Of a stretch of 64,000 nucleotides of DNA, positions 6,350 to 21,434 are shown piece after piece (the first letter of the stretch is position 1; every line of letters starts with the position of its first letter). The notes under the pieces are model-generated. The model saw only the letters and a list, made by a program, of their open reading frames with translations, did not search any database and had not been told where the DNA came from. The stretch is taken from positions 87,200 to 151,199 of the IMG/VR virus record IMGVR_UViG_3300018916_000001. The stretch is one strand, 5' to 3'. Source of the stretch: a virus. Position numbers and translations under genes: made by a program.

Positions 6350-6673
6350 ATGCCTATCATTATCACTGATTCAGATAATATCTCTACTATTAATACTGCT
6401 TCTAGATTACAAATTAATTTAGAGGTTGCTAACGAAATAGTAGAAGATATGGAAATAGAAGTCTTTTTTACTGTAGAAACCCAACTATCAAACGGCAGAC
6501 CTATCGGACAACCTTATTGGGATTCCGAACCTTTAAAACTTAACTGTAGAGGAAATCCTAAGCTTACGGAAGCAATGAGAGTTATTCAAGAAGCTATTGG
6601 TTATTATAGATATTTACAGCTTACAACTCCCAAAGAAGTAAGTATTACTCCTAAAAAACCTATACCTGAATAA
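6350..6673 (+). CDS. Hypothetical protein, possible tail-fibre chaperone
   Basis: Position immediately downstream of the tail fibre. Confidence 0.4.
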   Translation: MPIIITDSDNISTINTASRLQINLEVANEIVEDMEIEVFFTVETQLSNGRPIGQPYWDSEPLKLNCRGNPKLTEAMRVIQEAIGYYRYLQLTTPKEVSITPKKPIPE

Positions 6674-6675
6674 CT

Positions 6676-7059
6676 ATGCCAACAACTCTTCCACTAACAG
6701 AAACTATAAATCTTAATGTAGCCCCAACTACTCTATTTCAAGCTTCCACCTCGACTACTTATTTTATTGCTAAAGTATCTCTAAAAAATGAAAAATCTGA
6801 AGCTGCTAAAGTAACCGTCAGACTAAATAATTTAGAGATTGTCAAAGATTTGATTTTACCTATATTCAATCAAGAGCCATTAGAAATTAACTCTCTCTCG
6901 AAATTAATACTTAGAGGAACTGACAAATTAGAAATTACTGTCATACCTAACAGTTCAACTGGAGCTAGTGGAGGTACAGTAGGGGGGTTTCCTTGGTATA
7001 CCAACGTAGAATCAAATGCAGCTACAATAATAATGACTTATGTTAAACAAACTAATTAA
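6676..7059 (+). CDS. Putative virion protein
   Basis: Beta-rich ORF in the structural operon. Confidence 0.45.
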   Translation: MPTTLPLTETINLNVAPTTLFQASTSTTYFIAKVSLKNEKSEAAKVTVRLNNLEIVKDLILPIFNQEPLEINSLSKLILRGTDKLEITVIPNSSTGASGGTVGGFPWYTNVESNAATIIMTYVKQTN

Positions 7060-7071
7060 TAAATAAAAATT

Positions 7072-7638
7072 ATGCCATCTTATCAAGTTACTCCTGGTTC
7101 TGGTCTACGTATTGCTTGCGAAACATATTTAGAAGGTTCTGATACTGTTAATATCCCTATTATCACTAATAAAACAATTTCAGTTTCCAGTACAAATACA
7201 GGTGTTACAGCTACAGCTTATGCAGCAAACCAATTAATAGGAACTTCTGCATTTACGTTCTCTAATATCTCTCTAAAAGCTGGATTGGGAGGAGTAATAC
7301 AAAATGCTTCTTTATTTTGTGATGTACCTTCTACTGGTCAGTATTTATTAAGGCTGTTCGATAAACCTATTACTACTGCTTTCACTGATAAACTTCTTTA
7401 TTCTTCTTATGCTCTAACAGACCTTGAAGCTCAAAACTTTATAGGAGATATTGAATTTTCTTTCGGTTTAGCTAGCTCCCTCAACACTCTTTATGGTGTC
7501 AACGGAGTATCAATGGCTTTTACTACAGATTCTGCTGGTTCTCCTCATATTTACGGACTTCTACTAGCTAGAAATGCGCATACTATGACGGGAGTTAGTA
7601 CCTCAGGTCTTCGAGTTACTTTAGAAGCATTGCTATAA
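7072..7638 (+). CDS. Putative virion protein
   Basis: Beta-rich ORF in the structural operon. Confidence 0.45.
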   Translation: MPSYQVTPGSGLRIACETYLEGSDTVNIPIITNKTISVSSTNTGVTATAYAANQLIGTSAFTFSNISLKAGLGGVIQNASLFCDVPSTGQYLLRLFDKPITTAFTDKLLYSSYALTDLEAQNFIGDIEFSFGLASSLNTLYGVNGVSMAFTTDSAGSPHIYGLLLARNAHTMTGVSTSGLRVTLEALL

Positions 7639-11509: not shown

Positions 11510-11581
11510 CGCACAGAGCTAAGATTCGCACTTAGGATTCTAGTTTTGGAGACTAGCGTGTTCCTACTACACTATTCTGGC
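11510..11581 (-). tRNA. tRNA-Trp(CCA), atypical
   Basis: Anticodon arm CTAGT-CTCCAAA-ACTAG; D-stem GTGT/ACAC; T-arm CTAAG-TGCGAAT-CTTAG; imperfect acceptor. Confidence 0.7.
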
Positions 11582-15131: not shown

Positions 15132-16427
15132 ATGAATCCAAATTTTCAAGAAGCTTTATATACAACTAATCATTCATCTAAAATCTCTAGACTTTCTCAA
15201 AATGTAGTACAAGAAATTAGTAGAGACGACCCTACTTCTCTTACTGAATATCTTAAAATGTTACATTCCGATCCTGTAGTAAAAGCTTGTGTAGATATCA
15301 AATGTCTACGAGCTTCTAATACTTTCGGAATTTATCAGCATACTAAATCTGAAATTACAGACTTTATGCAAGGAATGTTTGCTAATATGCGAGATACATT
15401 GAAGAAAAATGTAGGTGAGTTAGCAATATGTACTGCATTAGGCTTCTCTGTTGCTGAAATCAACTTTAAAATAGATAAGTCATATCTTGTATTAGATAGT
15501 ATTTATGCGCTTAATTTAGAAAGAGTAAAGTTTAAAGGTAGTAGAGGTTATATTGAGTACGTAATTTACTCAGATAATAAAAACACTAATATAGAAATTC
15601 CATATAAAAAAGTCATTCATATAACCAATTCATCTTCTACTACTTTTAATGACCCATTTGGAAGTGCAGAATGTAAAAGAGCTTATAAATATTCTCAAGC
15701 AAAGATGGCAATTTTATCTGATATGGTACTTTCAGGTAGAAATTTAGCAACTGGAATCTTAGTAGGTAAGGTGGATAGTAATATTAGCACTGTAATGATG
15801 GATATGTATGGTAATCCATTGATCGGAGCTAACGGTCAACCTGTTAAGAAAGGCGCTCATCAAGCATTATTCGAGAAGTTAATTGCTTTAGAGAATCATT
15901 CAGTATTAGTGACAGATAAAGCTAATGATATTATGCCTATCTCAGTACCAGATGGAAGTCAATTTTGGAACAATGCACTTCAACAATTAGATAAATATAT
16001 AATGAGGAGCTTTGGTGTACCTACATTAGTATTTGAGGAAGGTTCAGGTGCTTTAGGAGTAGCTACCTTATCTGTTAAACAATCAACTCTTTTAGACGCA
16101 ACAGTAGAAGTCATTGTAAATCAAATCCAAGACCAGATTATAGAGAAAGTCTGTAAACCCATTATCTTATGGAACTTTGGCAAACAAAAAGATTATGGTA
16201 AGTTCGCTATTGATTCTAGTTCTGACCCTGGAGTTGAAATGCAACAACTTCAAAATATATTCACTGCTATATCAATGGGTATATTTAGTGCAGATGACCC
16301 TGTAGTAAGCAATAGAATTAGAGGGGTACTTAATCTTCCAATTCAAACAGAGAAAGAGATTGAAGAAGCTAAAGCTCTAAAACAAATAGAACAACAAAGC
16401 CAAATGCAGCAACAACCTCCAATGTAA
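15132..16427 (+). CDS. Portal protein (DUF935 / Mu gp29-like)
   Basis: 431 aa; DPVVKAC, GFSVAEI, NDPFGS and QIIEKVCKPIILWNFG segments are typical of this portal family. Confidence 0.75.
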   Translation: MNPNFQEALYTTNHSSKISRLSQNVVQEISRDDPTSLTEYLKMLHSDPVVKACVDIKCLRASNTFGIYQHTKSEITDFMQGMFANMRDTLKKNVGELAICTALGFSVAEINFKIDKSYLVLDSIYALNLERVKFKGSRGYIEYVIYSDNKNTNIEIPYKKVIHITNSSSTTFNDPFGSAECKRAYKYSQAKMAILSDMVLSGRNLATGILVGKVDSNISTVMMDMYGNPLIGANGQPVKKGAHQALFEKLIALENHSVLVTDKANDIMPISVPDGSQFWNNALQQLDKYIMRSFGVPTLVFEEGSGALGVATLSVKQSTLLDATVEVIVNQIQDQIIEKVCKPIILWNFGKQKDYGKFAIDSSSDPGVEMQQLQNIFTAISMGIFSADDPVVSNRIRGVLNLPIQTEKEIEEAKALKQIEQQSQMQQQPPM

Positions 16428-16655
16428 TTAATTTAATAGCTCTATAACTGTGCCTTGGTAATACAGATTAAAATCCTCCTGATAGTCTCCGTTCTCTTGG
16501 CAATCTTCTCCTACATAAACTTTCCAATTACCATTAAGGTCTATAACACATCTCTACTAAAACTAAAGTTATTCTCTATAAAATCTTCTATAACAGCACT
16601 CAAATATGCTATAGAAGTATCTGTTTTTGTTTCAAGAATACTTTTAAAATCAGGA

Positions 16656-17342
16656 CTAATGAATACTCCTCTCATTTTCTTTCTCCAGTAATTCTTCTAA
16701 CCAAGACTTAAATTCTTCTTTACTAAGTTCATCAAAAAACTCTCTAACATCTTTAAATTCTCTAAGCTCAGATTTAGGTGTATTGTGAAATTCTTCTATA
16801 ATTTCTCTCAAATGAGCTTGAAATTTAAAGTCATTATTTTCAACTTCATTTAACTTCTCATCAATTTCTTGTTCATTGTTTAAATCTTGTACTCCAATAC
16901 TTAAGAGATAATTCTTCCACTTCTCTTCTTCTACTTGTTCTTTATAGAGTTTAGCTTTTACTATTCTCTCCGCCATTTCTCTATTTCTTAGCTGATCAGC
17001 TTCTTCTCCACAAATAGAAGAGAGTCCAGAAGGTATATGAGTTACTTGTGCGTAATACTCAACTCTAGCTGTTTTCTGGTCTTTACCTTCTTGAGTATCT
17101 ATAAACTTACATTTAAGTTCTTTTGGGTCTATATAGAAATCATCAGGTTCTTCGTATATAAGATTTTCATACTCTTGACTTTTCTCCAAAATAAGTTTGT
17201 AGATGTTAGAATCTTTACTTATTAAATAGATTATCTCTACTCCATTATCAGTAATTAGCTCTTGTACTGGTCTAAAATTATAGTCTGTTGAAAGATTAGG
17301 ATTTTTACTACTGAAACATTCTACAAATATAGTTTCTATCAT
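16656..17342 (-). CDS. Protein with a degenerate peptide-chain release factor (RF-1) domain
   Basis: IDPKELK....GKDQ....VTHIPSGL...C.EE.DQLRNRE.A..I.KAKLY aligns with RF domain 3 but lacks GGQ. Confidence 0.7.
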   Translation of the reverse strand: MIETIFVECFSSKNPNLSTDYNFRPVQELITDNGVEIIYLISKDSNIYKLILEKSQEYENLIYEEPDDFYIDPKELKCKFIDTQEGKDQKTARVEYYAQVTHIPSGLSSICGEEADQLRNREMAERIVKAKLYKEQVEEEKWKNYLLSIGVQDLNNEQEIDEKLNEVENNDFKFQAHLREIIEEFHNTPKSELREFKDVREFFDELSKEEFKSWLEELLEKENERSIH

Positions 17343-17350
17343 TTTTTCTA

Positions 17351-17854
17351 TTAGATATATTTAGCCCAACGATTTCTTTCTTCATCTATAAACCAATCAA
17401 GTTCATCTAGCAAAACTACATCTTCGAGAGATACAGCTATTGAATTCTTATTATACCCAAAATATAATTTATCTTCTACTATATCTATTAAACATCTAGG
17501 TTCATAACTTAAAAGAATTCTCATACCTTCTAATACTTGAAAGGTAGAATTCATTTTTACATCTTCTATAATTACTTGTGTCATTTAATAATTTATATTA
17601 GATAAATACCAGCCATACTCATATTTCCAAGAGAAAGTAGTAATAGAATTTTCTACCTTACTAAACTCCCATCCCCATTCTTTCAAATTTTTTACATCTT
17701 GTTCACTTATCTCTTTATCATCTGTATATAGAAGATAATATTGAGTTACACTTTCACAATATAAATGAAGGTTTGGATAATATCTTAGTAGAATTGAGAA
17801 CCCTCTTAGTAAACATTCAGTATCAAAGTTTTGAGGTTGAGGTATTTGAATCAT
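17351..17854 (-). CDS. Two tandem paralogous small proteins (17351-17584, 17585-17854)
   Basis: Shared LxGxxILLxYxP...SxxDVxxLxExxW pattern. Confidence 0.55.
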
Positions 17855-17874
17855 TTATCTAACTCCTATAAAAA

Positions 17875-17973
17875 TGTCCTACTCACGAATCGAACGTGAA
17901 TACTACCTCATATAAGAGGCTGCTCTGACCCAAAGGACTGTGTTTATCAGATCTTCCGTTGAGCTAGTAGGAC
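17875..17973 (-). tRNA. tRNA-like gene (Ile/TAT-like) with a large D-loop insertion
   Basis: Perfect acceptor GTCCTAC/GTAGGAC-A, D-stem GCTC/GAGC, T-arm TCACG-TTCGATT-CGTGA; D-loop about 35 nt; anticodon loop irregular. Confidence 0.7.
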
Positions 17974-18458
17974 TTACAAACTAATTAGTCTTTTGTATCC
18001 TCACTATTTTATTCTTTTTCTCTTCCTCTTTACGTTTTTCGTAATCACTTATGTGTTCCCCAGTCCACGACTCGTATAGTTCTTCTCTAATTAAAAGACC
18101 TCCAGTTACACAAGCAGCATTATAAGCAATAAAAAATCCAGTACCAATTATACTCATAGGTTCCATAATCTTTTTACCTCTAGTTTTATTTTTCTTCTAT
18201 AAATCATACATTAACTCTTCAACTCTTTCGTAACAATCATCGTAATACTTAGCTTCTCTTTCATCTACTACTTCTTCTATCTTTTCAATAACTACTCTAA
18301 ATCTTGTCCCTGTAGAAAAATCTCTAAGAAGTTTTTCAAGTTCTAGATACTCCTTTTCATTTAAAGTGAAAGCGTAAGAGATAAGTAGAGATAATACAGA
18401 ATAATTATCTGTTAACTCTTTATCTTTTATATCATCCCACCATTTTATAGTATTCAAT

Positions 18459-19040
18459 TCAATCATTCTTTTCTTCTAACTCTCTTAGCTCTTTTTGTCT
18501 ATATCTAGGTAATTCATCATTATCGAAATTAACTTCATCACTGTAAAGACCCTCCAAGTGTTCCCATAAGTCAATAATTATTCTATCTTTCTCATTTTCT
18601 CTATATAAAAGCTTCCTAAATCTAGGAAACTCTTTCTTATACATTTTATAGAGCTTAAGATTATTATCAATGCTAAACTCTGTATTTACAATTCTATCGG
18701 CTAATTTAATAGTCAAAGCTGCATAATTCTCTCTAGTTTTTGGAGCTGTCTTCTCAAGTATTTCTTCTCTATTTTTACCTGGTTCATTGGTTAAATCAAA
18801 TACCATATCTGCTACTTCACTACCAAATACTGATTTAAGAAGCTCGTAAGTAACAGGAGTATCTTCTAATGAATCATGTAACCAAGCACCAGAAAGTACA
18901 ATACCATCTTTTATACCAAACTCCTGTAAAGTTAGAACTACCTCTTCTAGATGTTTTGTATAAGGTAACTCCCCATAAAACTGATTTTTATGTACCAATC
19001 TAGCAAATAACTCTGCTTGTTCACTTAATAGCATTTTCAT
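18459..19040 (-). CDS. Small alarmone hydrolase (RelA/SpoT HD domain, Mesh1-like)
   Basis: H.NQ...PY..HL.EV, WLHDSLEDT, FGSEVADMV..LT, IKLADRI.N. Confidence 0.85.
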   Translation of the reverse strand: MKMLLSEQAELFARLVHKNQFYGELPYTKHLEEVVLTLQEFGIKDGIVLSGAWLHDSLEDTPVTYELLKSVFGSEVADMVFDLTNEPGKNREEILEKTAPKTRENYAALTIKLADRIVNTEFSIDNNLKLYKMYKKEFPRFRKLLYRENEKDRIIIDLWEHLEGLYSDEVNFDNDELPRYRQKELRELEEKND

Positions 19041-20934: not shown

Positions 20935-21380
20935 TGTTTACCACTTTTATTGTAATTAACTAATTGATAATGAATATTCACTTGTTCTAATAGTTTATCA
21001 ATGTACTTCTCAAAAGAAGCTCTAACTCTTTCTATATTCTGTCCTTTAAAAGTAGGAGCTGCCATATTAGTACCAGGTAAACTACCTATTAATTTTCCAG
21101 AACTATCTTTACTAACTCTTAATTTAAAGTCTTTATAGGTAAGAATTATACTATTGCTTTTCTCTAACTCTTTCTGTTTCTCATAGTATTCCTTTAAGCC
21201 TTCATCTACTTTCTTTTCAAACACTTCTCTTAATTCTTTTACGGTTACTCCAGATACATCGTAATAAACACCACTAGCTACAGGAAAATATTTATTCTTT
21301 CTAATTCTTCCTATTAAATAATCATCAGAATGAACATAAACATCTAAAATAAAACCTAGATACTCTAATGTATTACTCAT
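20928..21380 (-). CDS. Tandem HicB-like domain protein
   Basis: LEYLGF..LIGRI..SGVTVKELREVFEKKVD and LTYKDF..LIGSL..FKGQNIERVRASFEKYID. Confidence 0.7.
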   Translation of the reverse strand: MSNTLEYLGFILDVYVHSDDYLIGRIRKNKYFPVASGVYYDVSGVTVKELREVFEKKVDEGLKEYYEKQKELEKSNSIILTYKDFKLRVSKDSSGKLIGSLPGTNMAAPTFKGQNIERVRASFEKYIDKLLEQVNIHYQLVNYNKSGKQW

Positions 21381-21399
21381 TTTTCTTTTCCTATAGAAG

Positions 21400-21424
21400 A
21401 AAAAGGGAGCTATTAAAACTCCCT
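21400..21424 (-). terminator. Intrinsic terminator
   Basis: RC AGGGAG-TTTTAATAG-CTCCCT-TTTT just after the stop of 21435-22295. Confidence 0.65.
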
Positions 21425-21434
21425 CATAAACTAC

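Follow-up and report, generated by a model that had tools for sequence, protein, structure and literature searches.

A putative non-catalytic phage protein built on a release-factor body and carrying an acidic helical domain

Release factors (RFs) are among the most conserved proteins of translation, and in them the RF body mimics the acceptor arm of a tRNA. Plant PrfB3 is an organellar protein with an RF domain that is non-catalytic. The two glycines of the GGQ motif are essential for peptidyl-tRNA hydrolysis, according to the studies listed under PMC6514570 (Frolova 1999; Mora 2003). The same work, which surveyed bacterial RF hydrolase domains in 2019 and makes no mention of phages, gives RF1, RF2, ArfB and PrfH all with the glutamine, lists the mitochondrial ribosomal protein MRPS35 as the only inactive one, and describes PrfH as lacking domain 1 and occurring in conflict-related contexts (PMC6514570). 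ArfB keeps the GGQ motif and anchors its basic C-terminal extension in the empty mRNA channel, and its isolated GGQ domain does not bind ribosomes and remains in the soluble fraction (PMC3950681). No description of phage RF domains devoid of GGQ was found in the published literature. Here, a phage gene is analyzed that belongs to this last kind: a whole clade of phages keeps genes derived from RF1 that do not encode GGQ.

The window, the whole stretch of DNA analyzed, takes up the right-hand 64 kb of an IMG/VR phage record that is 151,199 bp long, has direct terminal repeats and shows a G+C content of 31%. Open reading frames translated with table 11, the sole code applied, span most of it. 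The gene of interest, whose product is hereafter called P0001, is the final one of a long minus-strand block of early and metabolic genes, among them Dam, DUF4326 and an alarmone-hydrolase-like HD_4 gene; it is convergent with a Mu-type portal gene (15132-16427). The features of the gene and its immediate surroundings are the following.

16656..17342, minus strand: RF1-derived gene encoding P0001, an ORF of 687 bases and 228 aa (ORF list and translation)
17148..17342, minus strand: domain 2 remnant, aa 1-65, comprising the first strand and part of the sheet, with the stop-codon-recognition loop deleted
16893..17147, minus strand: RF domain 3, aa 66-150, with the RF-1/GGQ domain fold including the long helix alpha7
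17076..17084, minus strand: K87-D88-Q89 at the catalytic GGQ position (AAA GAC CAG codons read directly; HMMER alignment)
16659..16931, minus strand: acidic helical C-terminal domain, aa 138-228, with the pattern W..YLLSIGV..LN...EI..KL..VE ... WLE.L
16440..16675, minus strand: small downstream gene whose start overlaps the P0001 stop codon, homologue of an 85-aa gene of the related contig L012

The 85-aa protein of L012 matches this downstream gene by tblastn in two pieces lying in different frames, 16675-16550 and 16544-16440, and the sole open ORF there has 44 codons' worth of protein (44 aa); the split gene is apparently a frameshifted pseudogene or an assembly error. On the upstream side, where related phages have thyX, 17351-18466 on the minus strand is taken up by four small ORFs without a known family (77, 89, 61 and 89 aa); ThyX is absent from the whole genome. 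Next comes the HD_4 gene (18459-19040, minus strand), a stand-alone gene of the RelA/SpoT hydrolase type located four genes upstream of P0001 in the same strand block. Its Pfam score, 27.2 bits, equals the cut-off exactly, it matches phrog_990 at 1.5e-34, and related phages keep the gene in this neighbourhood. A hairpin followed by a T run at 17880-17902 (minus strand) does not exceed chance expectation, Rfam gave no tRNA match at E<=1 at 17875-17973, and scans for promoters and terminators performed no better than on shuffled sequences.

ARAGORN and Rfam together revealed only two tRNAs, tRNA-Gly(UCC) and tRNA-Trp(CCA). The latter (11510-11581, minus strand) adjoins tRNA-Gly, was missed by ARAGORN but scored 44.9 bits with Rfam, and has an acceptor stem with non-standard pairs and a bulge. 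The idea of stop-codon recoding or suppression is not supported, since neither program found a suppressor tRNA.

Release-factor homology and the GGQ position

P0001 matches Pfam RF-1 (PF00472) over aa 69-143 with an E-value of 4.9e-9 and 36.6 bits, just above the gathering cut-off of 35 bits, and this is the single match to the family across the 151-kb genome. A weak second match, at genome positions 21169-21426, falls inside a protein longer than 729 aa and was put down to chance. In phmmer searches against PDB chains, P0001 retrieved mtRF1 (2e-8), RF2 (about 5e-7) and RF1 (about 2e-6). The original prediction, which placed an RF domain 3 at aa 71-133 (16944-17132) and proposed the PF00472 profile as a check, was correct in its motif string and its coordinates and agrees with the Pfam and PDB-chain matches, to which a structural match described below is added. 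PCRF (PF03462) gave no Pfam match in P0001. The NCBIfam prfA models matched at positions 206-289 only, with 32-37 bits against cut-offs of 400-423, and the prfB models matched the same stretch of P0001, far under the equivalog cut-offs. Among PHROGs, P0001 matched phrog_19918 over aa 88-141 only (E=8.3e-7) and phrog_20323 weakly (E=0.0011).

In the phmmer alignments, GAGGQH of mtRF1 and RF2 pairs with EGKDQK of P0001, which sets the GGQ position at K87-D88-Q89 and bears out the earlier reading of EGKDQ at this site. The glutamine is thus retained and both glycines are lost. Five close homologues of P0001, with 67-79% identity, were found in metagenomic protein collections, and in six close homologues the GGQ position reads G-[KR]-[DEH]-Q. 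A profile search extended the family by 13 further relatives at E<=4.5e-24, separated by a wide gap from the canonical RFs, which begin at E=2.5e-9, and an additional paralogue, P0185, was read from a related contig. These relatives come from metagenomic phages. In one and the same alignment, GGQ was absent from 20/20 family members and present in 40/40 canonical RFs. Whether homologues would also lack the motif had been raised at the outset; they do, and the core of the original prediction, a catalytically dead domain 3 incapable of GGQ chemistry, holds and extends to every relative found. The position is occupied in the subfamilies as listed here.

Window type and P0015: G-[KR]-[DEH]-Q
P0078: DRVQ
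183-aa type: [GD]R[GN][MI]
P0014 group: GAYGG-like
P0185: loop deleted

The best conserved positions of the family belong to the domain 3 core (H102, P104, C111, E114, N120 and A124). Members of the 183-aa type score above the Pfam cut-offs for both PCRF and RF-1, and the P0014 group falls under the cut-off. The 183-aa relatives match the prfA profile over positions 112-287 with E-values as low as 2e-26; prfB fits them less well and prfH far less well, and this prfA-best match indicates that the family derives from RF1 domains 2-3. One of them, the 183-aa paralogue P0017, matched phrog_19918 at 3.6e-22. A scan of viral contigs with the family alignment yielded no relatives. GenBank phages, searched by megablast with the region and by tblastn with P0001, gave few matches, all to unannotated records and to aa 68-141 only, which we take to resemble host release-factor genes; tblastn of P0017 retrieved mostly bacterial prfA within contaminated or unannotated "phage" records.

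Since Gln89 is kept in eight family members, residual or altered catalysis is thinkable, and P0001 could be a surviving peptidyl-tRNA hydrolase or release factor that uses this residue within a variant loop. None of the six close homologues varies at Gln89 or Gly86, P0015 has both residues too, and related phage proteins are labelled release factor or peptidyl-tRNA hydrolase in databases. We nevertheless regard such an activity as very improbable: both glycines, which the references given under PMC6514570 report as required for catalysis, are changed to charged residues, sister subfamilies have M, I or no loop at the GGQ position, the protein has no decoding or anchoring module, and its NCBIfam prfA score is 36.8 bits where the cut-off is 400. 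As it has neither the glycines nor the decoding loop, and neither domain 1 nor domain 4, P0001 cannot be a release factor.

Domain architecture and predicted fold

Domains 1 and 4 of release factors are absent from P0001, and an acidic helical domain of about 90 residues follows alpha7, in place of domain 4. In alignments, P0001 has a gap where P0015 and P0017 retain a GxQR..VP..T-like segment and where canonical RFs also have their recognition segment. The C-terminal domain (91 residues) has a net charge of -14 and a pI of 4.5.

An AlphaFold model was obtained from an alignment of 64 sequences, comprising the phage family, stand-alone C-domains and 40 canonical RFs, with a pLDDT of 84.5 and a pTM of 0.71; a run on the six close homologues alone reached a pLDDT of 41, and the 64-sequence run was used instead. 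By Foldseek and VIA-align, aa 1-150 of the model superpose on RF domains 2 and 3 of 1zbt (Z 10.6, 137 residues) and 2ihr (Z 10.3, 147 residues), which are RF1 and RF2 in the free, closed form. VIA-align of model aa 66-150 with domain 3 of ribosome-bound RF1 and RF2 gave Z values of 9-10. As the canonical RFs in the alignment shape the model, these superpositions are supportive of the fold and not independent evidence for it.

The acidic domain belongs to no family in Pfam, PHROGs or the PDB as judged by sequence search, the best PDB profile match having an E-value of 0.09. Its sole PHROG match is a marginal one to phrog_3445 "toxin" (E=0.0048), for the relative P0035 only; matches in the ESM Atlas stayed under meaningful scores, and a word-based search for short stand-alone C-domain proteins returned 0 candidates. 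A likeness of the C-terminus to RelB/DinJ antitoxin tails had been proposed and was not upheld: Pfam at E<=10 gave only RF-1 and a weak FANCL_d1, the PDB profile search with the C-domain alignment found nothing below E=0.09, and the tail in question, EFKDVREFFDEL, falls within a distinct, conserved acidic domain of 70-90 residues. PADLOC gave marginal matches only, to UzuA for P0001 (E=0.02) and to TmtA for its relative P0016 (E=0.0017).

A possible, if doubtful, role is that of a ribosome-directed blocker or modulator. The dead domain 3 would enter the 50S A site or the peptidyl-transferase cleft and compete there with RF1/RF2, ArfB or tRNA, so delaying termination or rescue on host messages or on selected phage messages. 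That the core motifs of domain 3 (H.PTG....C..E....N.EMA..I.KAK) are what the family conserves best, and that the net charge of this domain resembles that of canonical RFs, would fit such a role. However, every known ribosome anchor is absent; P0001 has neither domain 1 nor domain 4, and neither a codon-recognition loop nor a switch loop; its tail is acidic, not basic; and the segment following GGQ (VN.T.SAVR), which is located in the PTC, is replaced. The solubility of the ArfB GGQ domain by itself (PMC3950681) and a genome with only tRNA-Gly and tRNA-Trp, and no suppressor tRNA, speak against it as well. The loss of domain 1, the codon-recognition loop and domain 4, together with an acidic C-terminal extension, weighs against canonical A-site binding.

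The slot in related phages, selection and evolutionary rate

Nine related contigs, several of them of about 150 kb like this genome, share an arrangement in which Dam, DUF4326, HD_4 and ThyX genes are followed by a slot corresponding to the P0001 gene and then by a convergent Mu-like portal gene, past which lie sulfotransferase-glycosyltransferase and R2K genes. Their portal proteins are 68-97% identical to that of the window. The content of the slot varies as follows.

Window, L002, L003, L012 and L013: fused gene of 223-228 aa
L007: degenerate fused form (P0014)
L011: RF-like gene and, 12 nt later, a separate 71-aa acidic-domain gene (6570-6785)
L008: acidic domain alone (P0022)
L010: acidic domain with an unrelated N-terminus (P0016)
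L005: 183-aa RF-like gene without the acidic domain
L013: paralogues of 183 aa and 227 aa side by side, the former at 2237-2788 with the GGQ loop deleted
L003: besides the fused gene, a 63-aa fragment of RF domain 3 (7186-7377) that starts after the loop

Stand-alone or differently fused acidic domains were collected as P0019, P0020, P0022, P0035, P0016 and P0187. This traffic of fusion and fission between the RF-like body and the acidic domain indicates that the two are functionally linked. Complex prediction for the split pair, P0075 and its adjacent 71-aa domain, scored 0.00 and was counted neither for nor against. Directly downstream of the slot, three contigs carry a gene for a Gad2-like nucleotidyltransferase (GGAPRDW motif; Pfam Gad2), at 8665-9177 in L003, 8724-9392 in L007 and 6410-7021 in L010.

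Selection was assessed by Nei-Gojobori dN/dS over five orthologues, comparing the window gene with the other four. Whole-gene values of 0.14-0.31 indicate that the gene is maintained. Broken down by region, dN/dS ranged over 0.09-0.39 in the N-terminal part, 0.20-0.41 in domain 3 and 0.08-0.36 in the acidic domain; noisy, relaxed values came only from the short stretch of the former GGQ loop.

Because the RF part is degenerate, truncated or absent in some related phages where the acidic domain persists, it may be dispensable, and the protein could be an exapted scaffold or a decaying remnant in which the acidic domain is the functional unit and the RF part a passenger being lost in the clade. 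Occurrence of the acidic domain in the same slot either alone (P0022 of L008) or behind an unrelated N-terminus (P0016 of L010), the 63-aa RF fragment of L003, a P0014 group that falls under the Pfam cut-off and the relaxed, if noisy, dN/dS of the former loop are in line with decay. Yet the N-terminal and domain 3 regions of window-type genes have dN/dS of 0.09-0.41, frames are intact in five orthologues, and 183-aa forms without the acidic domain persist too; this reading is deemed unlikely.

The pace of change was compared between the window and L002. The P0001 gene shows 69% identity, with a dN of 0.19 and an omega of 0.23, whereas the portal gene shows 97% identity, with a dN of 0.02 and an omega of 0.04; the former evolves about 10 times faster. 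A gene that is maintained but changes fast follows a pattern typical of accessory, host-interaction genes, which is not proof of such a role.

These traits bear on a further alternative, which we hold to be rather unlikely: that P0001 acts as a decoy or adaptor for a partner other than the ribosome, for example a factor recognizing RF domain 3, such as the PrmC methyltransferase, or a host defence or toxin protein that targets the translation apparatus, with the acidic domain serving in anti-defence or in mimicry of nucleic acid. The variable accessory slot and a rate some ten times that of the portal would fit such a gene. It would also agree with the Gad2-like gene immediately downstream in three related loci, the nearby HD_4 alarmone-hydrolase-like gene, the conservation of Gln89 in the window-type subfamily and the net charge of -6 to -13 of stand-alone acidic domains. 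Against it, there was no PADLOC match of note, a Gad2 homologue is absent from this genome, and the glutamine is lost in other subfamilies, which have M, I or a deleted loop; mimicry of a PrmC substrate cannot for this last reason be general.

Proposed role, the wider class and comparison with known systems

The reading that we prefer, and consider fairly probable, is that P0001 is a putative non-catalytic binding protein on an RF body, that is, a catalytically dead descendant of RF1 that is selectively maintained. Of RF1 it retains a stump of domain 2 and the complete fold of domain 3; domains 1 and 4, the loop that reads codons and both GGQ glycines are gone. Domain 4 is replaced by a small, strongly acidic helical domain, which also exists as a separate gene in related phages. 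Such a protein would work through binding and not through catalysis. Its RF-derived body may bind some part of the translation apparatus, or else a factor recognizing RF domain 3, and the acidic domain may add another contact or imitate a nucleic acid. Action in the early or middle phase of infection would be expected.

RF domains devoid of GGQ are also found in cultured phages. Fold matches in BFVD and tblastn with domain 3 of a family member retrieved many short phage proteins, labelled "RF-1 domain peptide chain release factor", "peptide chain release factor 1" or "putative peptidyl-tRNA hydrolase". Four of these short RF-1 domain proteins from cultured phages were examined, and 0/4 contain GGQ.

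Acinetobacter phage KARL-1 gp136 (L015, 1504-1740): SGARRW at the GGQ position
Pseudomonas phage phiPsa347 gp006 (L016, 1489-1884): GAGGM at the GGQ position
Vibrio phage K354_0233 (L017, 1489-1833): no GGQ
Clostridium phage CDMH1 gp77 (L018, 1327-1665): GGQ loop deleted

The release factor and peptidyl-tRNA hydrolase labels carried by the short phage RF-1 domain proteins are, judging from these motifs, probably wrong. The lineage of the window is a separate, larger architecture among phage dead RF-domain proteins. It is conceivable, though we would put this forward only tentatively, that it represents one lineage of a widespread phage class of dead RF domains that either act on termination or rescue or decoy immune effectors with which the host targets the ribosomal A site or release factors. 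The acidic domain would then be a separable anti-host module, fused or adjacent to the RF-like body and often beside a Gad2-like anti-defence gene.

Whichever role applies, GGQ-less RF domains are present, as shorter proteins, in cultured phages of four other host genera besides the clade studied here. Binding to the ribosome or to a partner of release factors, if true, would be a new way for viruses to control termination or rescue; decoys, if that is what these proteins are, would indicate that some host defences involve the termination machinery. At the minimum, the present database annotations are misleading.

Compared with the systems outlined at the beginning, P0001 resembles RF1 (PrfA) in domain 3 and in part of domain 2, both by sequence and by predicted fold. 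It differs in being phage-encoded and 228 aa long, against about 355 aa, in having no domain 1, PxT-type loop or domain 4, in reading KDQ in place of GGQ, and in its added acidic helical domain. PrfH (RF-H), the RtcB-linked rescue factor for damaged ribosomes, is likewise an RF homologue without domain 1, and the model of P0001 superposes on 9mor with a Z of 7.8. PrfH, however, retains GGQ and domain 4 and pairs with RtcB, and none is encoded in the P0001 genome; identity with PrfH was rejected on a TIGR03072 score of 15.8 bits against a cut-off of 166.65, together with the lack of RtcB and of GGQ. ArfB/YaeJ and ICT1 resemble P0001 in that a GGQ-type domain is followed by a helical C-terminal extension. 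Equating P0001 with ArfB was rejected as well, because it has no GGQ and its extension is acidic (net -14, pI 4.5). Organellar non-catalytic RF-domain proteins such as MRPS35 and plant PrfB3 set a precedent for an RF hydrolase domain that loses its catalytic motif and takes on a structural or RNA-binding role; they are eukaryotic and carry other added domains. The short phage RF-1 domain proteins (PHROG 20323) are, like P0001, phage-encoded RF domains 3 without GGQ. They have 78-131 aa and consist of domain 3 only or bear other tails, whereas the lineage of the window has a domain 2 remnant, an acidic domain of its own and a place next to the portal gene.
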